Positions 5,954 through 61,966 of a DNA stretch of 64,000 bases are shown one piece after another. A program made the translations under genes and the position numbers. The notes under the pieces are model-generated. The model ran no database searches. It saw nothing but the letters and a program-made list of their open reading frames with translations, and was not told the origin of the DNA. The DNA is from an uncultured Planctomycetia bacterium (GTDB taxonomy: Bacteria; Omnitrophota; Gorgyraeia; B26-G9), in assembly GCA_964437495.1 (NCBI GenBank), contig CAYTGV010000001.1:28552-92551 (forward strand). The letters run 5' to 3'. Each line of letters starts with the position of its first letter. Position 1 is the first letter of the stretch.

Positions 5954-5981
5954 TTGAATTCCTCTTAAAAGTTTCTTTGGT

Positions 5982-6122
5982 TTATTTTACTTCCTTAAAC
6001 TGATCTTTGCCTACCCCGCAATCAGGACAAACCCAGTCGTCCGCAAGCGCCTCAAAAGCCACATTATTATTCTCTGCCGGGTCATAAATATATCCGCAAA
6101 CTATACATTCAAATTTTTTCAT
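5982..6122 (-). CDS. rub: Rubredoxin
   Basis: [19 protein letters not shown]...[19 protein letters not shown] has two CxxCG knuckles. Internal start of track ORF 5982..6206, with GGAGG upstream. Confidence 0.9.
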
Positions 6123-6136
6123 ATTTCCTCCTTTAA

Positions 6137-6457
6137 TTATTTTATCAAACCGCTTAACATGCTCACCAGCTTTTCCTTTGGGACCACCCCCACTGACTCT
6201 CCGCAAACCTGTCCCTTATTAAAAATCAAAACCGTGGGAATACTCATCACTCCATATCGAGTTGCTACATCAGGAGCATCATCAACATTCAATTTACAGA
6301 TCTTTACTTTTCCATTATATTCATTAGCCATTTCATCTATAAGCGGTGTTAATATACGACAGGGACTGCACCATTGGGCCCAAAAATCTATAAGCACCGG
6401 AATGTCTGATTTAATAACTTCTTGTTCAAAATTTTCTGTACTTAGCGCTAAAGCCAT
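6137..6457 (-). CDS. trxA: Thioredoxin (variant WCSPC active site)
   Basis: 106 aa with thioredoxin-fold signature ...[13 protein letters not shown]... and ...[14 protein letters not shown]... Confidence 0.85.
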
Positions 6458-9143: not shown

Positions 9144-12100
9144 ATGAAATACAAAAAAAACACATACAAAAAACTGCTTCTAATTATACTAGTCAACTCT
9201 TTGATTTTTTCTCATTATTTTATTGGGCAAGTTTTGGCTGAGCAGGCCTCCGACACTTATATAAAAAAATACACTAGGATAGATAGTAATGACCTTCTTT
9301 CCCCCCAAAGCAATATTGAAAAGTTAAGGGCAGGCAGCTTTTTCGAAAAAAGCCTCACTTCTGAGTTTACCGGTTCAAGACTGTCAAATAAAAAGCCAAG
9401 AAAATTAGCTGATTTAAAACTGGCCAATAAAAACCTTTTTCCAATCCCGTTCCCATTCCCTTCCGCACAATTTGATCGAGGACAATCAACTCCGGAATGG
9501 CTTGAGTCATATATTATGTCAAGAGTACTTCTAGAGCTAAGTTTCAAGCACAACAACTTGATACCTTTAAAAGCAGCCTTAGAAATTGCCCCGGAAGTTT
9601 TCGAAAATTACGGGCTAAAAGCAAATATAAAAAAAATAATCAAGCTTATTAATGGATTACAAAAAAGAGCTTTAATCTCAAATGCTGACGGTCTTGATTT
9701 CAGCTATAACCACCAGCAGATTATTCAGATTAATGTTCCTTTAAGAACTTTGGCCGTCTGGTCTGATGCCTTTAATTTTATCCGCAGTGATATTAAAAAC
9801 GCTCTTGCTTCTAGCCACTATGATTTCCTTACCATAATTGAGGAATATGCCCTCACTAGTGAATTGTGGCCTGCTCATCCAATTGAATCCCGGTATCCGG
9901 TACTAAGAGCCATTGCCAGTTTAACAGCAGAGGAACAAAAGAAACTCATAGCTATATTACTAAATAATGAACGGCTAAGAACCTATCCGCTCATAGATTC
10001 CACAATACTCATGCTGGACTTCGAGGAAGGAAAAAAAGAGTGGCTGCAAAAATATGCTCCTCAATTAGTAAATCGAAACCTTTATCTTATTGCCGCGGAA
10101 ATATCATTACTTGCCGGCGGCTTAGGAAGAGTGATGCAGTATCACGGAACAAATATGCATAAACTCGGAGCCAATGTGCTTTATGTAGAACCGTATTATC
10201 CCCTAACCAGAGATAAAACTGGATCCGTACAGCCTTTGGACTACTCAGGCTTGGCTATACCCGTTAAAGATTTGAAAAAAATCGACTACGATTTTACCAC
10301 AATAGTTCAAAATGGAAATATTTCTTTTGAAGTCTTTGTCGGGAAAAACACACTCGGCATAACCGTTTATCTGATCAGAGATAAAAAATCCGAATATGTT
10401 AATATCCTGTATGAATACGGCACTCAGGAATCTCCTGCCTCAAATTATGAATTTACCGAGTTTTTCACCAAAGCAACTCTGGAACTTATTAAATATTTGG
10501 AAGTAAAAGAACGAAAAAAATTAGGCAACAGATATAAACCTCCGCTTGTAGATGCAAACGACGGACAGGCTCTGCCCTTAAATGCTTTTAGAAGAATTTT
10601 TTATTTAGATAAGGAAAAAATAATCACAGAAGGCACAAACAAAAGAGATATAGATTTAGCACATGAGGTGTTAACTCAGGCAATTTTTAACGGTACAACT
10701 CATACTTACCGAAACCGCGGTATCATCAATGACTTTAATTACGGCCGTCATTTTTTAAGTAATGCAGGGATCCCAGAAGAATATCTATGGCTGTTTCTTC
10801 GCAAAGAAATCGATGGAACCCTTCTTTGGGATATGACTAGCGGCGGGCTTAGAAGTTCTGATACAAGCAAAGCTGTTTCCGCAATTCATGCCCATGAAAT
10901 GAATGCCCTTGATCCGATGATAAAACTTATCGGCATTACCAACGGCGATGACCGCGTGTATTCTTCCGCTTATTTCAGAGAGGCACTAAAAATTCTGGGA
11001 GTATCCGACTTTGAACATCCCACTGCACAGCAGGTTGCAAAAGCAAAAGCTATCTGCAAAAAAAATATCGGGCTTGACCCTAATCAAATGGTCATCTCCT
11101 ATTCCGGCAGGCTGGTGCAGGAAAAGGCAGGCCGAAACCGTGCTTTGACAGATGAAAACATCGAAGCTCTTGTAAAAGAAGGAATACAGGTACTTATCTA
11201 CGGCAATGTGCAGCCTTATGAAGAAAGCATTGCTATCAAAGAATCTCTTGAAAGACTACAGGAACGCTTATCAAACTCCGGATATAAAGGCAGGCTTATT
11301 TTTAAGCCAAAATTCAATATTGATGAACAAAGACAGCTTTTAGCTGCTACAGATATTCAGATCCAGGATTCTGACCGTTATACCGGAGCTGCCGAATATA
11401 CTGAAGCAGATGTTACCGCTAACGGCGGAATTCAAATGGGCGCTCCATTCTGGGAAGGAATAATTCAAAAACAAGGTGCTGTGATAAATTCAAAAACAAT
11501 GACCGGCAATACCCTTGTACCGGCCGATACAAACAGTAGCTCTTTTTTAAACTCTTTTAACTGGGCACATAAGAAATTCCTAGCTCCAAACAATGAACTT
11601 AGCGTTTATCAGGCCTCTTCTATCGAATTAAGCAGAGTTCTGGAGGCCTCTTTGACAGCTGCCGAATACTTACGCTTCTGGAATAATGCCTTCTGGGAGC
11701 AAAAAAATAAAATGCCAGCTCCGAAACCACGCGTTGCCGGAGAAGTCAACATCCTTGATTTATCCCTTATTTGCCATAGCAACTCAAAATCAGCCTCGAT
11801 TTTACGGCAAGTAAACAACTTCAGCTTGGATTATTCTCCCCAAAAAGGTGACGAATTGGAATTTACCGTTACTATAGACCGCCAGGCTTTTGATTCTCTG
11901 CATTATGGGCAAAAACATCTTGTCTCCTTTGACTTGGTTAGCGCTCAGCTTGTAAATGACTATGGACTCAGAGTACCTTTAAGCATCAAAAAAGTAGCCG
12001 AAATAACTGTAACCTTTAATGCTTTTTTACCTAAAAACCTGCCTCTGCCTTTTAATGGAATTATCGAAATAACTTCCGGATTATGGAAAAGCGCACGCAG

Positions 12101-12182
12101 TATAAGTATCACAACAAATACTATTGTAAAAAGAAAATCACCCATGGTAAATTCCACAAGTCAAGTATCGACTTCAATTTAG
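9144..12182 (+). CDS. Large exported protein (signal peptide) with a central divergent glycogen-synthase-like (GT5/GT-B) region; function unknown
   Basis: 1012 aa with signal peptide MKYKKNTYKKLLLIILVNSLIFSHYFIGQVLA|EQ. Motifs align with GlgA: NLYLIAAEISLLAGGLGRVMQ (KTGGLGDV-like), YSGRLVQEKAG (GRLxxQKG), SDRYTGAAEYTEADVTANGG (SRFEPCGL...TGGL-like). Catalytic K and E positions appear substituted. Confidence 0.5.
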   Translation: MKYKKNTYKKLLLIILVNSLIFSHYFIGQVLAEQASDTYIKKYTRIDSNDLLSPQSNIEKLRAGSFFEKSLTSEFTGSRLSNKKPRKLADLKLANKNLFPIPFPFPSAQFDRGQSTPEWLESYIMSRVLLELSFKHNNLIPLKAALEIAPEVFENYGLKANIKKIIKLINGLQKRALISNADGLDFSYNHQQIIQINVPLRTLAVWSDAFNFIRSDIKNALASSHYDFLTIIEEYALTSELWPAHPIESRYPVLRAIASLTAEEQKKLIAILLNNERLRTYPLIDSTILMLDFEEGKKEWLQKYAPQLVNRNLYLIAAEISLLAGGLGRVMQYHGTNMHKLGANVLYVEPYYPLTRDKTGSVQPLDYSGLAIPVKDLKKIDYDFTTIVQNGNISFEVFVGKNTLGITVYLIRDKKSEYVNILYEYGTQESPASNYEFTEFFTKATLELIKYLEVKERKKLGNRYKPPLVDANDGQALPLNAFRRIFYLDKEKIITEGTNKRDIDLAHEVLTQAIFNGTTHTYRNRGIINDFNYGRHFLSNAGIPEEYLWLFLRKEIDGTLLWDMTSGGLRSSDTSKAVSAIHAHEMNALDPMIKLIGITNGDDRVYSSAYFREALKILGVSDFEHPTAQQVAKAKAICKKNIGLDPNQMVISYSGRLVQEKAGRNRALTDENIEALVKEGIQVLIYGNVQPYEESIAIKESLERLQERLSNSGYKGRLIFKPKFNIDEQRQLLAATDIQIQDSDRYTGAAEYTEADVTANGGIQMGAPFWEGIIQKQGAVINSKTMTGNTLVPADTNSSSFLNSFNWAHKKFLAPNNELSVYQASSIELSRVLEASLTAAEYLRFWNNAFWEQKNKMPAPKPRVAGEVNILDLSLICHSNSKSASILRQVNNFSLDYSPQKGDELEFTVTIDRQAFDSLHYGQKHLVSFDLVSAQLVNDYGLRVPLSIKKVAEITVTFNAFLPKNLPLPFNGIIEITSGLWKSARSISITTNTIVKRKSPMVNSTSQVSTSI

Positions 12183-43348: not shown

Positions 43349-44845
43349 CTAGTTTGCATTCCCCGCACCATAATCGTGAAAATACTCCATTATTATTGCC
43401 GCAATATTTTCGGCTATTATCCGATATCCATGCTTTGTACAATGCCTGTCTTCTTCTGAGACAAAGTAATATTTATAAGGCCGATGCCTTAAGAGCTGAA
43501 CAAATCTCTCTTCATGCCGAATAATCTCAATCTTATACCTGAAAGCCACTTCCATTATTTCAGATGAAACCCCATCAGGATATCCCGAAAAGAAAAGCCT
43601 TATATTGTTACGCTCACAAGACTCTACCATTTCTTTTAAATTAGCAGACAAAATTTCAGAAACATTGCTTTCTTTCATAAGAACATTCGCGAAATATAAA
43701 TTTGCTATTTTAAAAATACTGTTCCTGCCTCGAAGTTTATCCTGAAAGTAATCACGCCTTAATTTTGCGTTCTTGTCTACCATTTCTATAGCTAACTCAA
43801 TACAATCTCTACTTTTCGGATCCAGCTTCAAGGCCTTCAGATAATAAGCCCTGGATTCTATAAAAAAATTATCCATATAAAGGTCACCTGCCATACGAAT
43901 ATACGCCTGAGATAAAAATTTTTTAGCCATATTATTTTTTGGAAATTTTAATAAGAATTTTTCGTAAAATAAAACAGTTTTTTCAATAATATCCATTCTC
44001 ATAAAGACATCCTCCAGTTCTTGATGCCAGATTCGAGCCTCAGGATTCTTATTCAAAGCAACCGTTAAACGATTTAACGCTTTAGCATATTCTCTGTTAA
44101 GCTTATAACAACGAATTAATTCAAGTACGCTCAGATCATCATTGCCATCGATCATTATTGCTTTATAATAAAATCGTTTTGCCAATCCATAATAACCAAA
44201 GTCTCTATATATATTTGCGTAACGTATTAAGATAGGAACAGTTTGGACTTGGGCCAGCTTTAACCGGGCGAAATGATTATATTTTTCTTTCGAATTGATT
44301 TGTGCACTCTTCAATTTTAAGTTTTGCAAAATCACAGAAAAAAACTTAGAGATTCTAAGCCTTCCCATAAGAAACTGAAACAGTTTTCTATCTAATCTGA
44401 TATTACTATCATCAAAATTCCAGGTATCATTTCCGCCGCACATAATAATCACTGCCTCGGGCTTAAGATCAGAGACCGCTTTTTTAAGCTTTTTAAGAAC
44501 CTGGGTAGAATTGCTGCCGGGAACTCCCAAATTAATAATATTGAACTTTTTCCCATTTTTTTGTTGATTTAATATCTCCTGCATCTGCACAGGATAGCTA
44601 AATTTGGCTTTTGCTCCAATTCCGTAAGTAAACGAATCGCCAAAACAAAGAATTTTTATTGCTTGATATTGGGCTTCCTGGCCTTTTGCTCTATAAATGT
44701 GCTGCATAAAATAACTGCACACAGACAGAACCGTTTCCATGCTCAGAAGCGCAATACTGATTCCAAGAACGATGAGCAATATTTTTAAACGCAATTTTAT
44801 TGATTTTTTCTTATTCTTCATTTCGGGAATTTTTCCAGTATTCAC
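43349..44845 (-). CDS. Membrane-anchored SGNH/GDSL-hydrolase-like protein with TPR repeats
   Basis: FGDSFTYG (GDS block) and IIMCGGNDTWNF (GGND block) with TPRs in the middle; 498 aa. Confidence 0.6.
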   Translation of the reverse strand: MNTGKIPEMKNKKKSIKLRLKILLIVLGISIALLSMETVLSVCSYFMQHIYRAKGQEAQYQAIKILCFGDSFTYGIGAKAKFSYPVQMQEILNQQKNGKKFNIINLGVPGSNSTQVLKKLKKAVSDLKPEAVIIMCGGNDTWNFDDSNIRLDRKLFQFLMGRLRISKFFSVILQNLKLKSAQINSKEKYNHFARLKLAQVQTVPILIRYANIYRDFGYYGLAKRFYYKAIMIDGNDDLSVLELIRCYKLNREYAKALNRLTVALNKNPEARIWHQELEDVFMRMDIIEKTVLFYEKFLLKFPKNNMAKKFLSQAYIRMAGDLYMDNFFIESRAYYLKALKLDPKSRDCIELAIEMVDKNAKLRRDYFQDKLRGRNSIFKIANLYFANVLMKESNVSEILSANLKEMVESCERNNIRLFFSGYPDGVSSEIMEVAFRYKIEIIRHEERFVQLLRHRPYKYYFVSEEDRHCTKHGYRIIAENIAAIIMEYFHDYGAGNAN

Positions 44846-47768: not shown

Positions 47769-48512
47769 ATGGATGTTATTGGTATAATACCCGCGCGTTA
47801 TGGTTCAACCAGGCTTGCTGCAAAAGCACTTGCTAACATATTGGGCAAGCCTATGATACAGCATATATATGAAAGAGCCAAGGAAGCTTCTGTCTTAGAT
47901 GAAGTTATTGTGGCTACAGATGATGAAAGGATAAAAAAGGCCGTAGACTCTTTTGGAGGAAAAGCTTTACTTACATCTAAAGAGCACACATCGGGAACAG
48001 AACGGCTTACTGAAGTAGTTTTCGACATGGATGTGAAGGTTATTGTTAATATCCAAGGCGATGAGCCTCTTATTCACCCATCCATGATTAATGATGTTGC
48101 TTATGCCATACTCGAAAATCAAAATATCGTCATGGCAACCCTAAAACAACTTATCACTGATATAAATGAGTTTAATAATCCAAATGTAGTAAAGGTAATC
48201 ACGGATAAAAATAACTTTGCTATTTATTTTTCCAGGTCTCCTCTGCCAAACATATTAAGGAAAAAAGAAGGATTAGATATACCGATTTACAAGCATGTCG
48301 GGATTTATGCTTACACAAAAGACTTTTTACTTACTTTCAAAGGATTGAGATCCTCAAAGCTAGAGCTTGCAGAATCACTGGAGCAGCTAAGAGCAATAGA
48401 GAACGGCTATAAAATAAAAGTGCTGGAAACCAGACACGAAACTATCAGCATAGATACGCAGGAAGATCTCGATAAGGTCATAGACTATCTTAAGAATTCA
48501 ATTAATAGCTAA
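47769..48512 (+). CDS. kdsB: 3-deoxy-manno-octulosonate cytidylyltransferase (CMP-KDO synthetase)
   Basis: MDVIGIIPARYGSTRLAAKALANILGKPMIQHIYERA... is the canonical KdsB N-terminus; its presence implies LPS/KDO. Confidence 0.9.
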   Translation: MDVIGIIPARYGSTRLAAKALANILGKPMIQHIYERAKEASVLDEVIVATDDERIKKAVDSFGGKALLTSKEHTSGTERLTEVVFDMDVKVIVNIQGDEPLIHPSMINDVAYAILENQNIVMATLKQLITDINEFNNPNVVKVITDKNNFAIYFSRSPLPNILRKKEGLDIPIYKHVGIYAYTKDFLLTFKGLRSSKLELAESLEQLRAIENGYKIKVLETRHETISIDTQEDLDKVIDYLKNSINS

Positions 48513-49945
48513 ATAGACTGATTTAGCCACTCTTGCTGTGTCTGCTCAAGAAGCTGTTCTGCTTTCACCTTATCTTCAAGCGGAACATACAGATAATAAC
48601 CGGACGCAATGGTTCGAATCGGCAAGCCCCAGCTAAAATGGGACGGTTTAATCTCATTCATAATGCTTCTGCTTCTAAGACATGCCTTCTTCACCTCTGC
48701 CTCAGTTTCATCAATGGCAATATCTAAAAGGGTCCATTGTTTTGAAGGAAGGCTGCAGATTTTACGGAAAAATTTCAGTTGTCTTTTTATGTCATGGTAT
48801 ACTCCGACCAGAACTATCAAACCAAAAGCACCAAAAATACCTGCACTCATAAAGGAAATCTTAAGGATCAACGGTAAAGCAACTGGAAGGTAATAAATCG
48901 CTACAAATAATATCACGCTTAATGTTATCGTTTTAGTAATGGAAGCATTCAAATAATCTATTATCTTTTTATTTTGGCTTTCCTTTATTTTGCACTTATG
49001 CGCCAAAATGAGCTCATAAAATCTTCTGGGCCGATAGATTACTTTTGCGTAAACAAGCGTAAAGAAAATTATAGCAATTAAAACCATTGCAAAAGAAGCA
49101 AGATCAAACGAAACCTCAAAATAAGAGAATACTGTCTCTGTAATAATCAAAGGCCATACCCCCATCCATACCGGCCTTATTGAAATATGAAAATGCTCAT
49201 TATTTTCAGTACACATATCTATTCTATTTACAATTCTAGTAACTTTTCTGGCAAAATAAATAAAAGCTATTGTTATAACACTGAAAATAAACAAATGTTT
49301 CAAGCCTATCAGATTCCTGCCCCAGAATACAACCAATTGATCCCCGGCAAAAATAAATCTTAATATCACTTCTACGGCAAAAATCATACCCACTCCATTA
49401 CCAAAACCATATTTATTTATAACCTGCGTAAGCATTATAAAAATAAGCGTCATTACACAAAGAGAAAGAATGGTAGTTATCTGAAAAGGAAGTCCGGCAA
49501 ATTTCAGCAGGTTAATATCCGGGAATTGATTCAAAAGCTGCAAATCCATACTTGCCTGATATCCGGAAAACACACTTAAAATCAGGGCAATAATTACAGT
49601 CCCATACATCATTTTAGAACGCCCATGTTGTTCATGAAAAAACTTTCTATTTAACCCAGGCACAAGAAAAGCTATTATTTGAAGCATTACACAGGCATTA
49701 ATAAAAGGCATTATCCCTAAGGAACTTACCGATACATTACGCAGTTTTCCAATATGCACAAGAGCCATCAAATCCATTAAGCCCCCGCCTTGCGTCCTAA
49801 TATGCTGCTTATAGAGCTCAGCCAATGCGCTTAAATCAACCCCTGGCAGAGGCAAAAAATAAAGCACACGTACAAGCACAAGAACAGCTATGGTAACTAA
49901 AATCCTCTTCCATATGCCACATTCATCACTTTTTTTTATCGTCAT
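48509..49945 (-). CDS. Divergent SecY-family translocon protein with a C-terminal cytoplasmic DUF2007-like domain
   Basis: Aligns with the SecY N-terminal half: ...LPLPGVDLSALAELYKQ...SLGIMPFINACVMLQIIAFLVPGL...GRSKMMYGT... and ...GFGNGVGMIFA.... The last ~90 aa (WTLLDIAIDETEAEVKKACLRS...YYLYVPLEDKVKAEQLLEQ) match the DUF2007 pattern. Not in a ribosomal-protein (spc) operon context. Confidence 0.6.
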   Translation of the reverse strand: MTIKKSDECGIWKRILVTIAVLVLVRVLYFLPLPGVDLSALAELYKQHIRTQGGGLMDLMALVHIGKLRNVSVSSLGIMPFINACVMLQIIAFLVPGLNRKFFHEQHGRSKMMYGTVIIALILSVFSGYQASMDLQLLNQFPDINLLKFAGLPFQITTILSLCVMTLIFIMLTQVINKYGFGNGVGMIFAVEVILRFIFAGDQLVVFWGRNLIGLKHLFIFSVITIAFIYFARKVTRIVNRIDMCTENNEHFHISIRPVWMGVWPLIITETVFSYFEVSFDLASFAMVLIAIIFFTLVYAKVIYRPRRFYELILAHKCKIKESQNKKIIDYLNASITKTITLSVILFVAIYYLPVALPLILKISFMSAGIFGAFGLIVLVGVYHDIKRQLKFFRKICSLPSKQWTLLDIAIDETEAEVKKACLRSRSIMNEIKPSHFSWGLPIRTIASGYYLYVPLEDKVKAEQLLEQTQQEWLNQSI

Positions 49946-49969: not shown

Positions 49970-50815
49970 TTAAAATTCTCCGTTTACTATCTGGGCATCG
50001 CCCGCTAATTTCTTCACCCCTTGAATCCTGCGTTTTAACTTATTGTCTCTGGGATAAAGTTCTAAAATTTTCTTATAATAATGAATGCTTTGTTCATAAT
50101 CCTTTATCCTTTCAAAAGAAGCCGCGAGTAGTGTCAGAACATGCCTTTTTTCGATATTATTGACCTCCCTTGGCAGAAAAAGATAAGCCTGTCTGAAATA
50201 GGCTATGGACTTGACATAATCATTATTCATAATAAAGTAAATATCACCTATTTGCGAATAAATTTCCCAGGCTTTGGGGTTATATCTCAATCCATTCTTC
50301 AAGAATCTAATTGCCTTATCAGACTTACCCAGGCGTATGCCCAGCCAATAACCACCCACAATATATGCCTTAATATAATATGGATCCGCTAATACAGCAA
50401 GTTCAAACCAAGGCATTATCTCGGCACTTTTGGCATTATTAAGATGTTGAACCGGCTTGTAAGAAATAGCCTTGTTTAAGCGTGAAAAAATATCCTGATC
50501 ATCATTCACAGGCTGCCAAATTTCATTATTCTGCTTAGAGACATGCTCGTGGGGTACTTCACCTTCTAGACAAGAATGTCCTGCATTGTGCTTTGGATGC
50601 GAAGTCCCGCCGTGAAAATATCTATCTGCTTTTAAATACAAAATTGCCGCTATACTGCTGCGCAGCTGTCCAAACATCTTATAGAAAATATCGTTTTGAC
50701 AAATAAGGGAATTATTATTTGCCATAAAAAAAACATCAAGGTGTGCTGAACTACAAACTAAAATCAATACCACGATGATAACAATTAAGCTAGAATGGAA
50801 TTTGCCTAAAGCCAT
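49970..50815 (-). CDS. Membrane-anchored TPR-repeat protein
   Basis: 281 aa with an N-terminal hydrophobic anchor and TPR repeats; last gene of the ABC transporter operon. Confidence 0.5.
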   Translation of the reverse strand: MALGKFHSSLIVIIVVLILVCSSAHLDVFFMANNNSLICQNDIFYKMFGQLRSSIAAILYLKADRYFHGGTSHPKHNAGHSCLEGEVPHEHVSKQNNEIWQPVNDDQDIFSRLNKAISYKPVQHLNNAKSAEIMPWFELAVLADPYYIKAYIVGGYWLGIRLGKSDKAIRFLKNGLRYNPKAWEIYSQIGDIYFIMNNDYVKSIAYFRQAYLFLPREVNNIEKRHVLTLLAASFERIKDYEQSIHYYKKILELYPRDNKLKRRIQGVKKLAGDAQIVNGEF

Positions 50816-51564
50816 CTCTTTTGAAACCTCTTAAAAACAAAAAAAAGCAAGCAAGCCACATAAAGAGTCGCATACCCAAATATAGACAACATAACCCACA
50901 GCGGTAATGGACTCCATTCATATATAAGTCGATGGCGCAAATCAAAAAATTCAAAATGAGGCAAGAGATAATAAGCAATTTCCCCCAGAATAGGCAGGCG
51001 GTAAAATGCTTCTCGCATATTAGCGCCAAACCAACTCATTAAAAAGAAAATAGTATATGACAAAGTAACTGTAGTGGAAAATGTACAAAATACGGAAAGG
51101 CATATAGTCATTGCATTCAAAACAGCAAGCATAATAATACCACCCATAAATACCTGTGTATAAAGCAGCCAATCTCCTTGTCCTTGTTTAAGTAAGCTTA
51201 TAACCGTAAACAGCAAAAAAAATAAACCGAAACTAATCCAGCTTATAAACAAACTTCCCAAAAATTTACCGGCAATCACATGAACTCTCTTTATCGGTTT
51301 TGCCAAAAGAGGATATATTGTCTTTCCGCTTATCTCTTCTAACATAAGTCTTGCCGCATTAGGTACTGCAATAATTATGGAAAATAAAAATACAAGCCCC
51401 AGTCCTATTTCATTCATATATCTATAAATATGCTTAATTTCAAAAAAAGCGGCATTTGCTAGATAGACCATTAAAATAAGCAGCATTGTAATAAACACAT
51501 ATATATCTTTTTTACGGAATATTTCACGCATTATATTTATTGCGATCAGTTTAACTATCAACAT
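50806..51564 (-). CDS. ABC-2-type transporter permease
   Basis: 252 aa, about 6 TM; translationally coupled to the ATPase. Confidence 0.55.
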   Translation of the reverse strand: MLIVKLIAINIMREIFRKKDIYVFITMLLILMVYLANAAFFEIKHIYRYMNEIGLGLVFLFSIIIAVPNAARLMLEEISGKTIYPLLAKPIKRVHVIAGKFLGSLFISWISFGLFFLLFTVISLLKQGQGDWLLYTQVFMGGIIMLAVLNAMTICLSVFCTFSTTVTLSYTIFFLMSWFGANMREAFYRLPILGEIAYYLLPHFEFFDLRHRLIYEWSPLPLWVMLSIFGYATLYVACLLFFVFKRFQKRWL

Positions 51565-52304
51565 AGGTCACCTTTTATTATAATGTCTATAAAATACCTT
51601 TCTAGACTCATATCATCTCCCTTTTGCTTAAAAATATCCTCTACCTTATCTGTTTTTACCAGGACACCTTTATTTATAATTCCAATCCTGTCACAGACAA
51701 GCTCAACTTCTGAAAGCTCATGAGAGGAGAAAAAAATTGTTTTCCCTTTTGCCTTTAACCCTTTAATTATCTCACGTACGCTGCTTCTCGCCAGAGGATC
51801 AAGTCCGCTTGTAGGTTCATCAAAAATTAGCAAGTCAGGATCATTTATTAGGGATTGGGCCAGGCTTATCTTTTGCATCATTCCTTTAGAAAAATTTTTC
51901 ATCAATACATTTGCTTCTGCCTCCATACCAACAAGACTTAGCAAGTTGTCAATTTTTTTATCCGCAGTCTTTTTTCTAAAGCCAAAAAATCCGGCATACA
52001 TTCTAAGCAGTTCCCGTGGGGTTAAATACCAGTAATAATTAGCAATCTCCGGCATATAGCCCATACGTGAACGCACAGAGTAATCAGAAGAATCTTGTCC
52101 AAAAATGCTTATTTGACCCGCGGCTACAGGAAGAAAGTTAAAGATTGATTTTATGGTAGTAGTTTTGCCAGCACCATTAGGGCCAAGAAAGCCAAACACT
52201 TCTCCAGAGACAATCTTAAGCGTAAGATGAGCAATTGCCTTTTTCAGGAAATTGCTTCCTTTATAAGTAACAGATAAATCATTCAATTCCAACGCATATT
52301 TCAT
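51558..52304 (-). CDS. ABC transporter ATP-binding protein
   Basis: Walker A GPNGAGKTT, a signature-like FSKGMMQK, and Walker B LLIFDEPTSGLD. Confidence 0.85.
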   Translation of the reverse strand: MKYALELNDLSVTYKGSNFLKKAIAHLTLKIVSGEVFGFLGPNGAGKTTTIKSIFNFLPVAAGQISIFGQDSSDYSVRSRMGYMPEIANYYWYLTPRELLRMYAGFFGFRKKTADKKIDNLLSLVGMEAEANVLMKNFSKGMMQKISLAQSLINDPDLLIFDEPTSGLDPLARSSVREIIKGLKAKGKTIFFSSHELSEVELVCDRIGIINKGVLVKTDKVEDIFKQKGDDMSLERYFIDIIIKGDLC

Positions 52305-52334: not shown

Positions 52335-53705
52335 TTAAAGCTGCTTGAAAAACTTATCCTCAAATATCGTCCCTTGATTAAGAACAAGATCAGGATCTAT
52401 TGTCTTTTTAATAATAGCCATTTCACGCAACCCTTTAACGCCAAGCATAATTTTAAGATATTTCCGTTTTAATTTACCGATTCCATGTTCTGCTGAAACA
52501 GTTCCTCCCAATCTAAGGCCTTCCTTGACAAACTCAAGGTAAAGATTTTTAGCCCTTTGAAAATCGTTTTTAGTTTTCGGCATTAAATTAACGTAAAGAT
52601 GATTTTCCCCGATATGGTCGAATACGCAATATTGCATACTGCTGTTTTCAAGTGCGCGTTCATAGAAATCAAACATCCCCGGAAAATGCCTATCTGAAAC
52701 CGCAATATCAGTATTAATCTTCGAAAACCCGTTTTCTTTAACTCTTTCATTTATAAAAACCGGCAAATCGTAGCGCATTGCATTAATAGGAATCTAGCGG
52801 TATTTCGGCCTGAGCATATCAAGAGAGAAGACGTCAAAATATTCAATACAACTAGCATCAATATCGTTATTTTTAGCAGATTTTCGGCTGGTATATGTTA
52901 GTTTTTTAGATTAAAAACAAATTCCAGTGCCTGCATTTTGGTTTTAAAAAAGACTACTCCGTTAAACTCCTGTTCCGGCAATTCACAGAGGATTACTTTG
53001 ATCTTACTTATCATACCTAAAATACCCTCACAACCAATAAACAAGTCAATCAGATCACTACCGGAAAAGATATAATAATCGACAGAATTTTTAACTTTAG
53101 GCAGGCGGTAGCCGGGCAAAGCACAGAATAATGGCTTGTTTTTAATAGGAATATAGAGCCTGTTTTTAACAAAACAATTACCTCTTTGGATATCAAGTAA
53201 TTGCCCTGTGGACAGGATAATATACAGGCCAAGGATATGCTTTCTTGTTGAACCGTATTTAAAACCTTTAGCCCCGGAGGCATTGGTAGCTACGGTTCCC
53301 CCCAAGATATGCATTTTTTTCTGTAGGATCAAGTAAATAGGTGAGTCCGTATTTAGCAGCCTCCAGGCATAACTGCTCAATGCTCACGCCAGGCTCTATA
53401 ACTGCAAATCCCCCAGGCTTGTCCGGAAATTTTTTAATATCAACTATTTTGTTTAGTTTTTCAGTTGAAATTATTGAACCACTCAAGGAAATTCTACCTC
53501 CCACAATACCGGTTTATGCTTCGAATATAGTCAGGGGCATTTTTCCAGAAGCAGCTTCTTTAAAATAAGCAATTGCCTCATATTCAGTTTTAGGAAAAAC
53601 TATTTCCCGGGCATTTCCACAACTCAACCCAGAACTATCCTGTAAATAATCTTTGAATGTATCTATATTCTTTTTTCGTAACATAATTAACCTAATTACC
53701 TTCAT
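52335..53705 (-). pseudogene. FAD-linked oxidase (GlcD / D-lactate dehydrogenase family) gene broken into at least 4 pieces
   Basis: Track ORFs 53514..53705, 53268..53504, 52898..53380 and 52335..52778 together span an FAD_binding_4 domain (...GGNxxTNASGAKGFKYG...) and the C-terminal ...SAEHGIGKLK...DPDLVLNQG. Lesions: an in-frame TAA at 53514..53516 (...LTIFEA*TGIVGGRISL), a frame change inside a G6 homopolymer at about 53299..53304, and a stop/frame break in 52779..52897. Confidence 0.6.
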
Positions 53706-55209: not shown

Positions 55210-56847
55210 TTAGTCTCTATCCATCTTTTCACGTAATTGCTCAGAAACATTTTCCATCTTTCTTTCATAATAACTTTTGAGCTTTTCATTTTCTTTTTCA
55301 AGAATGCGAATCTGTTTTATATATTTAGCCTCTTCAATGCGCAGCTTCTTTTCCCATTCAAAAGAATTATGCAGAATCTCTGCTTCAGCGTCTCCTTGGA
55401 GGTTCAGTATCGTTTTTTTCTGTTTAGCCAGTTTTGTCTCTAATGTGCTCTTCTGGTCGGCAATTTTATCTTGCAGTTCTGCTAACTCGCGTTTTTGTCT
55501 TTTATTCTCCTTCTTTACATTTCTAAGCTCATCCTTTACGATTTTAGAAATTTTGTATGCCTCTCTTGTCTCTTCTCCGGAATAAAGCGCTAATTTCTGA
55601 TTCAATATTTGGATCTGATTGTTTTTTTCAGAGACGACTATCGCCTTTGTTTTTATCTCCTCTTTGAGCTTTAGAATATACATCCTCAACTGTTCAGATG
55701 ATTTTTTTAAAACCTCATTTTCTTCTAAATATTTATTTTTTTCCTTCTCTATACTTTGCCCATACTCAAGCTCTTTTTCCGCTGTCAACTGCCTCAGAAT
55801 CTTTTCCTTTTGCTGAGCCTGCTGCTTTGTTTTTTCGATCTCTTGCTCTCTCTTAAAAATTTCCTCAGCATACTTATTTTCTTTACTGCGAATTATTTCA
55901 TCCAGTTTTTCGTATTTTTGATTCAATTTATATTCTAATACTTTTACTTCCTGCTCTGTTTTAATCCTGTATCTCTCTTCAAGCTGGAGATGTTTCTGTT
56001 TATATTCTTCTTCTTTTATTTCCAGTTCTTGATTAAATACGCTTCTTTGTTTTTCTATTTTTTCATTAAAGTCTTTAACCCGCTGCGCCAAAACTCTTAT
56101 CTGAGAGTCTCTCTGAACAATCGAAGTCCCAGCGTCTCCTATTTCCTGTTCCCGGACCATACCCTCTACGCCTTTAGATTCATCCATAATCTGCTGCAGA
56201 CGGGCATCATATTCCTTTTCCTTGCGTTTTAGAACCTCTTTATGCAAATTATCCTTTATTTTTAATTGTTCGCTCAAGCTGTCAACCTTTGCTGTAAGCT
56301 CAATTATCTTTTTCTCACCCCTGTTATCCAGTACGGATTTATCCTTTTGCTTTGCCTGCGCCATAACTTTCTCAAACTGCCCTGATAAGCTTTTCACTTT
56401 CATGTTGAACTCAAGCTCTTTTTGGATAAACGCTTCTTCGCTGGCTTTCTTCTGCTGAACAAAGTCATCCTCAGCCTTAAGTAATTTCTTTTCAAGGCTT
56501 TCAATTACCGGATAAGAAGACTCTTCTACGGCTTTTTGAAATATCAACTGCTGCTTTTTAAGCAGCTGTTCATATTTCACTTTCTGCTTACTGAGTGCCT
56601 CTTCCTGTGCCTGTTTCTGCTTATTCAATTCTTCCTTCAAAAAAGCTATTTCATTATCAAGTATCTTTTTCCAATAATAGCTTTTATTATCCCCAGCATT
56701 TTCATTAACACGATTTGATTGATAGATAACAGTCGGTTCATTAGATTTGACTGTCGCAACTGCCAAGCTAGGGATAAAAACCATCAACGCAATAATTGCA
56801 AGAATCATCTTTAACAAAATATCCGCAGATTTAATATCTCTTTTCAT
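55210..56847 (-). CDS. Membrane-anchored, E/K/Q-rich long coiled-coil protein, co-oriented upstream of fliW-csrA
   Basis: 545 aa with an N-terminal hydrophobic anchor (ILLKMILAIIALMVFIPSLAVA) followed by about 480 aa of heptad-like charged repeats. The many + strand ORFs across 55237..56941 are antisense low-complexity artefacts. Confidence 0.55.
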   Translation of the reverse strand: MKRDIKSADILLKMILAIIALMVFIPSLAVATVKSNEPTVIYQSNRVNENAGDNKSYYWKKILDNEIAFLKEELNKQKQAQEEALSKQKVKYEQLLKKQQLIFQKAVEESSYPVIESLEKKLLKAEDDFVQQKKASEEAFIQKELEFNMKVKSLSGQFEKVMAQAKQKDKSVLDNRGEKKIIELTAKVDSLSEQLKIKDNLHKEVLKRKEKEYDARLQQIMDESKGVEGMVREQEIGDAGTSIVQRDSQIRVLAQRVKDFNEKIEKQRSVFNQELEIKEEEYKQKHLQLEERYRIKTEQEVKVLEYKLNQKYEKLDEIIRSKENKYAEEIFKREQEIEKTKQQAQQKEKILRQLTAEKELEYGQSIEKEKNKYLEENEVLKKSSEQLRMYILKLKEEIKTKAIVVSEKNNQIQILNQKLALYSGEETREAYKISKIVKDELRNVKKENKRQKRELAELQDKIADQKSTLETKLAKQKKTILNLQGDAEAEILHNSFEWEKKLRIEEAKYIKQIRILEKENEKLKSYYERKMENVSEQLREKMDRD

Positions 56848-61378: not shown

Positions 61379-61452
61379 TGGAGCGGGAGAAGGGAATCGA
61401 ACCCTCGTAACCAGCTTGGAAGGCTAGTGTTCTACCACTGAACTACTCCCGC
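61379..61452 (-). tRNA. tRNA-Gly (anticodon UCC), CCA encoded
   Basis: Reverse complement is GCGGGAGTAGTTCAGTGGTAGAACACTAGCCTTCCAAGCTGGTTACGAGGGTTCGATTCCCTTCTCCCGCTCCA. It folds as a cloverleaf with anticodon loop CTTCCAA. Confidence 0.85.
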
Positions 61453-61719
61453 GTAATCTTTACATATCAAAAAATTCGATATTTCACAGCTTGACAAATG
61501 AGACCACAATTTACGGAGTGAAACGAACGAAAATTGTCTGGTCGAATTTGATCCCACCTACGCTTTCTTCTGTACCTTTATGGAGCTCAGCTACGGCGGG
61601 CACGCCCGCCATTTAACTGTTCATTCTTAAGGATAGCCTGCCATCTGCCACTTTGTTTCTACAAAGCAATTTTTATAGATGGCCTGCCATCCATAGCTTT
61701 GGTTTACCAAAGCGAAGGA

Positions 61720-61803
61720 TGGTGGGCAGGATAGGATTTGAACCTATGTAGGCGTCGCCGGCAGATTTACAGTCTGCTGCCATTTCCACTCGGCCACCTG
61801 CCC
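61720..61803 (-). tRNA. tRNA-Tyr (anticodon GUA), class II long variable arm, CCA encoded
   Basis: Reverse complement is GGGCAGGTGGCCGAGTGGAAATGGCAGCAGACTGTAAATCTGCCGGCGACGCCTACATAGGTTCAAATCCTATCCTGCCCACCA. Confidence 0.85.
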
Positions 61804-61891
61804 AATAAAAGTATAAAGTAAAAAGGTAAAAGTAAAAGGTTAACAATTTTGCCGCTTTTGCCTTTTTCCTTTTGCCTTTTTACTTACAAAA

Positions 61892-61966
61892 TGGAGCTGG
61901 CGAGAGGAATCGAACCCCCAACCAGCTGATTACAAATCAGCTGCTCTACCGTTGAGCCACGCCAGC
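61892..61966 (-). tRNA. tRNA-Thr (anticodon UGU), CCA encoded
   Basis: Reverse complement is GCTGGCGTGGCTCAACGGTAGAGCAGCTGATTTGTAATCAGCTGGTTGGGGGTTCGATTCCTCTCGCCAGCTCCA. Confidence 0.85.

Follow-up and report, generated by a model that had tools for sequence, protein, structure and literature searches.

Does this locus encode a second SecY with an extra domain fused to its C-terminus and, if so, what might such a channel be for? The original prediction, made on the window (the whole 64-kb stretch of DNA that was analysed), described a divergent SecY paralog with a DUF2007-like tail, lying next to kdsB and outside a ribosomal-protein/adk operon. The gene and the parts of its product are as follows.

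48509..49945, minus strand: the SecY-DUF2007 fusion gene, an ORF with an ATG start (478 aa plus stop)
48761..49945, minus strand: SecY-like core of 10 transmembrane helices (TM1-TM10), residues 1-395, with a plug-like helix at about 56-71, TM2b 'LGIMPFINAC' and TM5 'GFGNG' (from AF2 secondary structure and pLDDT, Foldseek, and alignment with the SecYs of E. coli and Omnitrophota)
49178..49228, minus strand: shortened C4 (TM6/7) beta-hairpin, residues 240-256 (from alignment)
48965..49000, minus strand: degenerate C5 (TM8/9) loop, residues about 316-327 (from alignment)
48509..48760, minus strand: C-terminal cytoplasmic DUF2007-type domain, residues 396-478 (start about 394), beta-alpha-beta-beta-alpha
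48611..48631, minus strand: family signature loop W439-G-L-P-I-R-T445 between beta2 and beta3 of the tail (from conservation and pLDDT)

The open reading frame is exactly the one predicted. Upstream of its ATG, at 7-14 nt, is a G-rich stretch resembling a Shine-Dalgarno sequence, and a protein 100% identical to the window fusion (P0001) is found on 8-9 public contigs, one of them 217 kb long. Compared with its orthologs, the gene has a dN/dS of 0.06-0.12, with 0.09-0.12 for the SecY core and 0.06-0.08 for the tail. The fusion gene is genuine and conserved, relatives in its clade align with it over the full length, and it is under purifying selection. NCBI annotates one ortholog, P0003, as 'preprotein translocase subunit SecY'.

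The claim that the protein aligns with the SecY core was confirmed. Pfam SecY (PF00344) matched residues 72-385 at 94.8 bits (cutoff 32.2, E 8.4e-27), where a missing SecY match would have spoken against the prediction, and the top PDB sequence match was T. maritima SecY (3DIN_C, E 1e-19, residues 13-391). The full-length AF2 model had a pLDDT of 89 and a pTM of 0.87, and Foldseek aligned it to solved SecY chains with TM-scores of up to 0.76. All of the expected motifs were present (LGIMPFI, GRSKMMYGT and GFGNGVGMIFA). With a score above the HMM cutoff and a 10-TM hourglass fold that has a plug and a hydrophobic ring, the protein belongs to the SecY/Sec61alpha superfamily.

The pore itself is largely kept. 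The fused family retains the hydrophobic pore ring (I, I, V, F, I, I at the aligned positions in the window subclade), the plug-like helix, the TM5 GNG motif and the TM2b/TM7 gate helices. The plug region in the window subclade reads 'HIGKLRN' where 'FSGGA' is expected, and in the wider family G, S or A often occupies the ring position that corresponds to I278, so the properties of the channel may differ or transport may even have been lost. Canonical SecY (TIGR00967; E. coli, T. maritima 3DIN, T. thermophilus 5AWW) thus shares superfamily and fold with the fused family, including the 10 TM helices, 'LGIMP(F/Y)I', 'G-x-G-N-G', the hydrophobic ring, the plug-like helix and the C4 beta-hairpin. 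The differences are at the cytoplasmic side, where the fused family has a deleted C4 tip, has lost C5 PGIRPG/R357, and has a DUF2007 domain in place of the C-terminal segment.

In canonical SecY, the C4 tip and the C5 'PGIRPG/R357' are the docking sites for the ribosome, SecA and FtsY. About nine residues of the C4 tip, the equivalents of E. coli R255/R256 among them, are gone from the fused protein, and this gap occurs in 27/27 members of the window subclade and 57/61 members of the wider family, whereas R/K is conserved at these positions in 12/12 canonical Omnitrophota SecYs. The C5 loop reads 'KCKIKESQNKKI' where the universal counterpart is 'GGFVPGIRPGKQT'. The positions of R357, P353, G354, P358 and G359 are deleted or unconserved in the fused family but invariant in canonical Omnitrophota SecY, and the C5 loop has the lowest pLDDT (76) of the core's cytoplasmic loops in the AF2 model. 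Taken together, both loops are degenerate or deleted in every one of the 27 proteins of the window subclade and in about 57 of the 61 from the wider family. This family-wide loss of docking loops is a more telling feature than those the original prediction had pointed to.

The tail was predicted as an extra C-terminal stretch of about 90 residues; we found about 85, strongly conserved among relatives, with a predicted beta-alpha-beta-beta-alpha fold. A low-complexity or chance tail, which had been named as a way for the prediction to fail, is ruled out by this conservation and by the tail's low dN/dS. We place it on the cytoplasmic side from the topology of SecY and a basic linker. The window tail did not match PF09413 even at E<=10 (gathering cutoff 25.7 bits), and plain Pfam and NCBIfam scans of the whole protein or the tail alone gave no DUF2007 match, so the DUF2007 assignment is invisible to a plain HMM scan. 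Among 21 family tails, 9 matched PF09413, all at E>=6e-4. A profile built from the tails does retrieve standalone proteins, and 7 of the 8 that we scanned matched PF09413, 6 of them above the gathering cutoff. In hhalign, the tail profile aligned to DUF2007 members, picked by their similarity to the tail itself, with a probability of 99.1% (E 8e-19, 76 columns). The beta-alpha-beta-beta-alpha arrangement is also that of 2HFV, although only chance matches came up when the tail profile was searched against PDB sequences. Homology at the family and profile level therefore supports a DUF2007-type tail. PF09413 is the 'putative prokaryotic signal transducing protein' family, and 2HFV is the structure of its member RPA1041; the literature mentions DUF2007 only in passing.

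Standalone DUF2007 proteins (2HFV, RPA1041) are thus homologous to the fused tail at the profile level and share its fold, but the fused tail is sub-threshold in Pfam, is tethered to a membrane channel and carries a WG(M/L)PIRT loop. This loop is inserted in the fused tails and absent from standalone DUF2007, and its W, G, P and T are invariant across 43 diverse tails. The original prediction had also proposed modelling the tail's structure, and in the AF2 run the pLDDT of the WGxPIRT loop rose from about 62 in the isolated tail to 86-90 in the full-length model. Judged by pLDDT, then, the loop may pack against the core.

The fold of the tail also resembles the ring-building motif in domain 1 of SctJ (PrgK/EscJ/MxiJ), so one could picture the tail as an oligomerisation domain that arranges copies of the channel in a ring, as in the inner-ring proteins of type III secretion. 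We think this improbable. The sequence evidence favours DUF2007 and not SctJ: SctJ-type Pfam families did not match any of the tails scanned, and no T3SS genes were found near the fused gene. The Foldseek E-values of the tail are all >0.06, the small alpha/beta sandwich being a very common fold, and SctJ domains are periplasmic lipoprotein domains while the fused tail comes after TM10, at the cytoplasmic face. The resemblance probably reflects how common this small fold is and not shared descent.

How widespread is the fusion? The fused family has at least 57 full-length clusters at 50% identity, mostly from Omnitrophota, and all 57 have the SecY core; the WG(M/L)PIRT tail signature is common to all members. 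With a strict sequence pattern, we found the fusion in 25 of 185,579 GTDB species genomes, again mainly Omnitrophota, which supplies the phyletic distribution that had been suggested as a check. Genomes that carry it include GCA_024231215.1, GCA_043826625.1, GCA_028718845.1, MHFR01 and JAGLLT01. SecY-DUF2007 is an undescribed SecY family found mainly in Omnitrophota. The closest canonical relatives of the fused cores were Omnitrophota SecYs in 46/63 queries, and the median score to canonical SecY was higher for Omnitrophota in 61 of the 63, with two ties. The family probably arose from an Omnitrophota housekeeping SecY.

We then have to ask whether the fused gene could simply be the only SecY in its genome, that is, a fast-evolving ortholog with a C-terminal extension. 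The NCBI label of P0003 would fit this, and so would the fact that we did not find a canonical SecY in the same assembly as the fusion. A tblastn search of the window gave no second SecY, and seven canonical proteins that we looked up (P0246, P0410, P0432, P0444, P0401, P0462 and P0398; assemblies JBDRBD01, ORJL01 plus a JGI sample, ERZ27253369, MHFL01, JAZDOS01, JBDRJN01 and JAQUSB01) were in none of the 28 known fusion-bearing assemblies. Nor was there any overlap between the GenBank accession blocks of four fused proteins and those of six canonical ones.

Against this, Omnitrophota have an ordinary SecY of about 448 aa in the usual place. Canonical secY was in the L15-SecY-Adk-Map-InfA (spc) context in 7/7 contexts seen (the spc-context loci are L031-L034, L038-L044 and L046). 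The fused gene is never there: probes for ribosomal proteins, Adk and InfA matched at none of 30 fused-gene loci, and the prediction that the gene lies outside such an operon was borne out, with no Adk, InfA, S13, L15 or L36 within +/-10 kb. The fusion protein is about 25% identical to canonical SecY and scores 100.6 bits against TIGR00967 (cutoff 253.6), compared with 412.5 for canonical P0410. Both R357/PGIRPG and the C4 tip are missing. The fused gene also evolves faster than kdsB (41-51% identity to loci L004/L005, compared with 73-76% for kdsB), while canonical Omnitrophota SecYs share 73-88% identity across the 120 best-matching clusters, a set reached from a seed that we obtained through the canonical-like fused protein of L017. 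The strict pattern also placed the fusion in no more than the 25 species genomes given above. The protein is not a TIGR00967 housekeeping SecY by score, by location or by docking loops, and a sole SecY is very unlikely. The ordinary SecY is an spc-operon gene and the fused one was never found in that setting; the latter is therefore almost certainly a second, specialised SecY. The paralogy that had been proposed is thus strongly indicated, and the canonical spc secY was located in the phylum, though not in the window or in a fusion-bearing assembly. The fused gene is probably an extra SecY alongside the canonical one, and the two would coexist in the same cell.

Our preferred reading, to which we give a probability of roughly 55%, is that SecY-DUF2007 is an accessory protein-conducting channel or insertase beside SecYEG with a remodelled cytosolic docking or gating face; that it transports is our inference. 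The membrane-embedded channel is kept, with its 10 TM helices, pore ring, plug-like helix, lateral-gate helices and GNG motif. The cytoplasmic face has been rebuilt by losing the C4 tip and C5 'PGIRPG' and gaining the DUF2007 domain, and substrates would no longer enter the channel by way of the usual docking loops for ribosome, SecA and FtsY. The tethered domain, which would lie at the cytoplasmic mouth, could then act as a receptor, a gate or both for another partner or for a limited range of substrates.

The same features could also describe a SecY-derived protein that does not transport at all, but regulates or scaffolds with DUF2007 as its sensor, either by modulating the genuine translocon, for instance through competition for SecE/SecG, or by anchoring a cytosolic factor to the membrane. 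In favour of this, the protein has lost all three of the canonical docking elements and has an altered plug region, the DUF2007 fold class also includes ACT and PII-like ligand-sensing domains, and there are no dedicated motor or substrate genes in the neighbourhoods examined. However, the hydrophobic ring, GNG and the TM2b/TM7 gate helices are kept at a dN/dS of about 0.1, and conserved pore features are expected of a working channel and unneeded for a mere anchor. We consider a pseudo-channel unlikely.

To our knowledge, the bacterial SecY paralogs described so far are essentially those of the Gram-positive SecA2/SecY2 system, and we know of no cytosolic domain fused to that SecY2. The accessory Sec system, SecA2-SecY2-Asp1-5, exports serine-rich glycoproteins (PMC5076819). 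Like SecY2, the fused family is a divergent second SecY thought to serve special substrates beside the housekeeping channel, but it is in another phylum, in hosts that encode kdsB. The SecY2 models TIGR02920/NF009082 did not match the fusion protein at E<=10 (they match canonical P0410 at 166 bits), neither the window nor the flanks of 30 loci contained SecA-family or Asp genes, and no glycosyltransferase genes were near the fused gene in the neighbourhoods examined. Without a model match or secA2/asp linkage, identity with Gram-positive-type SecY2 is ruled out. Plastid SCY2/SECA2 is likewise a duplicated SecY parallel to the main one, but it is eukaryotic-organellar, has its own SecA2 and is not known to have a DUF2007 fusion.

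The phylum Omnitrophota consists of bacteria that are ultra-small and reportedly predatory, and that have unusual giant proteins related to secretion. These giant proteins carry highly divergent SecA-like DEAD/preprotein-binding domains that are without the SecA scaffold and wing domains (bioRxiv 10.1101/2023.11.21.568195); none of the fusion-bearing genomes is named in that preprint. As a long shot, SecY-DUF2007 might be a dedicated channel for these domains as a non-canonical motor, in which case the WGxPIRT-bearing DUF2007 would serve as a new coupling interface after the loss of the C4/C5 docking loops. If so, diderm bacteria would have a second Sec pathway, orthogonal to the first, that exports or inserts giant predation-related proteins.

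SecY is among the most conserved and best-studied membrane machines. The fused family is a natural SecY that has dropped the loops used by every known partner and added a soluble domain at the same face. In it, evolution has run an experiment on ways of re-coupling or gating a translocon. DUF2007 would gain its first concrete molecular context, and Omnitrophota a candidate specialised export route.

The genes around the fusion in the window are the following.

47769..48512, plus strand: kdsB, context only (TIGR00466, 228.8 bits vs 155.2), convergent, 3' ends overlapping by 4 bp
49970..50815, minus strand: TPR protein (Pfam TPR), 24 bp upstream of the fused gene
50806..51564, minus strand: ABC-2 type permease (PF12679), overlapping the TPR gene by 10 bp
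51558..52304, minus strand: ABC transporter ATPase, DrrA/GldA-like (PF00005), first gene of an apparent 4-gene operon

The neighbour is a true kdsB, as predicted, and it is adjacent in 10/10 loci of the window subclade (L001-L009, L045). From this adjacency the original prediction had drawn a possible link to the envelope or LPS, with a translocon functionally tied to kdsB, but we reject that linkage and find the idea hardly credible. The genes are convergent and so are not co-transcribed, and synteny in this lineage extends over the entire region, which leaves the adjacency with little to tell. In other subclades the neighbours are unrelated and there is no kdsB near the fused gene. KdsB, moreover, is an enzyme of the cytosol and has no need of export.

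The other three genes could form one export system with the fused SecY, serving a specific envelope product. They are on the same strand and overlap or nearly abut, the TPR gene is probably co-transcribed with the fused gene, and the module is also in lineages at 41-50% identity (L005 and L045). In two distant subclades, L011 and L014, the fused gene likewise has TPR proteins at its flanks. Yet the module, whose TPR and permease genes are also present in L008, is absent in L004 and L006, where the gene immediately next to the SecY-like one is that of an FAD oxidase; in L007 there was no match to any of the three probes for the module; and in L009 the module is visibly decaying, its TPR gene included, while the SecY-like gene is intact. 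The module is absent from all wider subclades. The TPR protein is not an obligate partner of the fused SecY, and a single export system of this kind is doubtful at best. The top NCBIfam matches of the ABC ATPase were drrA/GldA, under their cutoffs.

All-vs-all clustering of the flank ORFs gave no universal neighbour, generic response-regulator receivers being the only widely recurring family, and the flanks examined held no conserved partner, motor or substrate gene next to the fused gene. A weak export flavour is seen at a few loci, with SecDF upstream of the fused gene in L018, L022 and L023 and signal peptidase I upstream in L013.

The original prediction described a divergent SecY-like protein next to kdsB, and this description was correct. 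By HMM match and by fold, the window protein belongs to the SecY/Sec61 superfamily. Its gene has a G-rich Shine-Dalgarno-like stretch 7–14 nt before the start codon:

48509–49945, minus strand, SecY-like ORF, intact, 478 codons, ATG start

Pfam SecY (PF00344) matches residues 72–385 with 94.8 bits (E 8.4e-27), and solved SecY chains align with residues 13–391, the top one being T. maritima 3DIN_C (E 1e-19). An AlphaFold2 full-length model from an alignment of 70 sequences has high confidence along the whole length (pLDDT 89.2, pTM 0.87), and its best TM-score on superposition with SecY structures is 0.76. The 3' neighbour is a true kdsB (TIGR00466, 228.8 bits vs 155.2). The remaining window carries housekeeping genes (haem biosynthesis, ResB, PurH, MnmE, DprA, FeoB, an MMPL transporter, PdxJ), and tblastn found no second SecY in the 64 kb.

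The protein is not a canonical SecY equivalog. It scores 100.6 bits against the NCBIfam equivalog model TIGR00967, for which the cutoff is 253.6. Nor is it a SecY2 of the Gram-positive type, as the two accessory-SecY2 models gave no match whatsoever and there was no secA2/asp linkage. To find the ordinary SecY of Omnitrophota we used the core, without its tail, of the most canonical-like Omnitrophota fused protein. The best canonical-length match was P0246, a protein annotated as SecY from an Omnitrophota MAG (37% identity). Among the best 120 clusters seeded with P0246, this ordinary SecY is about 448–450 aa long and 73–88% identical; it passes TIGR00967 with 412.5 bits, and in all contexts examined its gene lies in the order ...L6-L18-S5-L15-SecY-Adk-Map-InfA-S13-S11-S4. 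At the 30 fused-gene loci, E. coli InfA, Adk, S13, L15 and L36 probes had no match, and each locus had exactly one SecY homolog, the fused one. That the fused protein is the sole housekeeping SecY is highly improbable given its TIGR00967 score, its place outside the ribosomal-protein operon and its altered cytoplasmic loops. We did not find a canonical and a fused gene in one assembly (the six canonical look-ups were in other assemblies and the accession blocks did not match), so their coexistence in the same organisms is something we infer, and we consider it very likely. For 46 of 63 fused cores the top-scoring canonical SecY came from Omnitrophota; by median score, Omnitrophota stood above other phyla for 61 of the 63, and the other two were ties. 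Because of these higher scores, an origin by duplication of Omnitrophota's own SecY would fit.

The C-terminal tail (residues ~394–478) had been predicted to be DUF2007-like. This stood at the level of the family and the fold, but PF09413 did not match the window's own tail even at E<=10. The tail has no low-complexity character. Ten of its residues are invariant in 27 orthologs of 42–81% identity (W404, E413, A416, H436, W439, G440, P442, T445, S448 and A462), and in comparison with the four closest orthologs the tail has a dN/dS of 0.06–0.08, slightly below that of the core (0.09–0.12). The predicted fold is beta-alpha-beta-beta-alpha, with pLDDT 80 when modelled alone and 83–95 within the full-length model. 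DUF2007 was the sole recurrent Pfam family in the family's tails (9 of 21, best E 6e-4). A HMMER search with the tail profile, run exhaustively over 1.84 billion representative proteins, returned 89 proteins, and DUF2007 was present in seven of the eight standalone short matches (69–107 aa) scanned with Pfam, six of them above the gathering cutoff. With hhalign, 43 diverse tails matched the Pfam-positive standalone proteins, themselves picked by the tail profile, at 99.1% probability (E 8e-19, 76 columns). We conclude that the tail is a divergent DUF2007, below the Pfam threshold and recognizable by profile homology and fold. A ring-forming oligomer assembled through this tail as an RBM-like domain is, in our judgement, very unlikely.

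The predicted fusion is a family and not a one-off. A first homology search gave a tight, almost wholly Omnitrophota clade of ~478-aa proteins with full query coverage; beneath it was a gap and then canonical SecYs at ~25% identity, covering the core only. The tail-profile search gave 57 full-length representatives (>=440 aa, 50% clustering) with the domain at the extreme C-terminus, all 57 of which matched a SecY core probe, along with about 20 fragments. Many members lie much nearer to canonical SecY than do the window protein and its clade; one of them, P0213, reaches 210 bits against a canonical SecY. Common to all fused members is a near-invariant loop between beta2 and beta3, EP-x-R-[FY]-[ST]-W-G-[ML]-P-I-R-T, which standalone DUF2007 proteins do not have; the window version is PSHFSWGLPIRT (residues 434–445). 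Scanning 185,579 species-representative genomes for this motif gave 25 loci, a lower bound because the pattern misses the FNWG, FIWG and FYWG variants present in the window's wider clade. Omnitrophota is the label of about 15 of the 25, with Omnitrophica RIFCSPLOWO2_12_FULL_44_17 and 'Ca. Kappaea frigidicola' among them; the others carry the deposited MAG labels Planctomycetia/Planctomycetales, Deltaproteobacteria, Thermodesulfobacteriota, Pseudobdellovibrionaceae or unclassified. On a 515-kb contig labelled Planctomycetales (L026, 10001–10198) there is an orphan 66-codon DUF2007/WGMPIKT tail fragment, directly preceded by an in-frame stop, and no SecY core could be detected beside it. The fragment is probably what is left of a fused gene that was lost, or else part of a frameshifted gene.

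The alignment comprised E. coli SecY, 12 canonical SecYs of Omnitrophota, 27 members of the window's subclade and 61 fused proteins from the wider family. The canonical Omnitrophota proteins keep every hallmark: the pore ring (I, I, M, I, I, I), the plug (MNMFSGGA), the cytoplasmic loops C4 between TM6 and TM7 (YAKRVVGRKIYGGQST.LPLRVNQAGVIP) and C5 between TM8 and TM9 (GGFVPGIRPGKQT), and the basic C-terminal segment. The fused family keeps LG(I/L)MP(F/Y) in TM2b, the TM5 G-N-G (60, 54 and 61 of the 61 wider members) and a hydrophobic pore ring (I, I, V, F, I, I in the window's subclade), with the I278 position (E. coli numbering) frequently G, S or A in the wider family. A regulatory pseudo-channel that does not transport is unlikely. 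The C4 hairpin tip, about nine residues, is missing from the fused family, with gaps at R255/R256 in 57 of the 61 wider members and in all 27 of the subclade. The whole C5 motif is gone (Q, K, E or N stands in place of R357, and P358 is missing), and the DUF2007 domain stands in place of the lost C-terminal segment. To our knowledge, all known SecY partners dock on these three cytoplasmic elements. The docking role is known from the SecY–SecA (3DIN), SecY–ribosome and SecY–FtsY structures, and classical secY mutants in C5 and the C-terminus, such as R357H and Y429D, point to it as well.

The tail is joined straight to TM10 by the basic linker HDIKRQLKFFRKI, and this direct attachment, together with SecY topology, would place it at the cytoplasmic docking face. 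The WGLPIRT loop rises in pLDDT from ~62 in the tail alone to 86–90 in the full-length model, which suggests packing of the loop on the channel. The evidence best supports an accessory SecY-type channel with a replaced cytosolic coupling face. Such a protein would retain the parts needed to conduct or insert polypeptides and shed those needed to bind the ribosome, SecA and FtsY, and the tethered DUF2007 domain with its family-specific loop may act as a receptor, a gate or both.

Upstream of the SecY-like gene are three genes that abut or overlap with it and with each other, and the four look like one operon:

51558–52304, minus strand, ABC ATPase
50806–51564, minus strand, ABC-2 permease
49970–50815, minus strand, TPR protein

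At the loci of the orthologs, the state of this module varies:

L005 (41% identical ortholog) and L045 (50%), present
L008, present, only the TPR end visible at the contig edge
L004 and L006, absent, an FAD oxidase gene abutting the SecY-like gene directly
L007, ABC, ABC-2 and TPR probes unmatched, with no more than a short FAD-oxidase fragment upstream
L009, in fragments, with 55 residues of the permease matched and the TPR gene in two shards

At all of these loci the SecY-like gene is intact. The module is therefore no obligate partner, and it is quite unlikely that the channel is a component of this upstream ABC/TPR system. In L009, a close relative (5966–6324), the permease and TPR genes are short fragments beside an intact ABC ATPase and SecY-like gene, which looks like gene decay in progress. 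In the window, an FAD-linked oxidase upstream of the cluster (52335–53705, minus strand) is broken into 3–4 ORF pieces (147, 160/138, 78/72 and 63 aa); the L004 and L005 orthologs are intact at ~498–500 aa. An independent ENA assembly (L001) is fragmented in the same way, so the window's copy is probably a genuine pseudogene rather than an artefact of assembly.

A channel dedicated to LPS or the envelope, which the original prediction drew from kdsB, is scarcely credible. kdsB is convergent with the SecY-like gene (with a 4-bp overlap of the stop codons), the kdsB-pyrE-YjbQ-DacS11 side keeps its gene order throughout the subclade and carries no functional information, and other subclades have different neighbours. 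Export machinery adjoins the fused gene in two of them: signal peptidase I (Peptidase_S26) 15 bp upstream in L013 (7845–8699), and a SecDF fusion then RecJ upstream in L018, L022 (4683–7028) and L023. TPR or GDSL-TPR proteins lie beside it in L011 and L014, the remaining neighbours are metabolic genes, and no SecA-like gene adjoined it at any locus examined. Membrane-anchored GDSL-lipase/acylhydrolase-TPR fusions also occur within a few kb in the window's subclade, and it is possible that they are a functional associate or substrate class:

43349–44845 of the window, minus strand, GDSL-TPR fusion
L045 10274–13223 and L005 14241–16874, GDSL-TPR fusions
L014 10189–11730, in a distant subclade, GDSL-TPR fusion immediately downstream, overlapping the fused-gene stop codon by 4 bp

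Full-text literature searches (DUF2007; Omnitrophota/Omnitrophica with SecY; SecY paralogs) gave no description of the fusion, and in public databases the proteins are annotated as 'hypothetical protein' or just 'SecY'. We believe the family is of solid interest for the translocation field.

Elsewhere in the window, a 545-aa ORF with no Pfam domain (55210–56847, minus strand) lies upstream of FliW-CsrA; its position is conserved in L004 (489 aa) and L005 (461 aa), making it a conserved protein beside FliW/CsrA. One of the few plus-strand ORFs (9144–12182, 1012 aa) has a weak Glyco_transf_5 (starch-synthase-like) match at residues 316–487 as its sole match, the remainder being unannotated. The window also has a tRNA-Thr(TGT), tRNA-Tyr(GTA), tRNA-Gly(TCC) cluster (61379–61966, minus strand); in many bacteria this cluster leads into tuf-secE-nusG, but in the window the gene after it encodes a PMT_2-family glycosyltransferase on the opposite strand. 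All 2-kb bins of 1–64000 have negative GC skew (-0.03 to -0.30), a strong and uniform bias, and nearly all genes are on the minus strand, which places the window inside one replichore with its genes co-oriented with replication.
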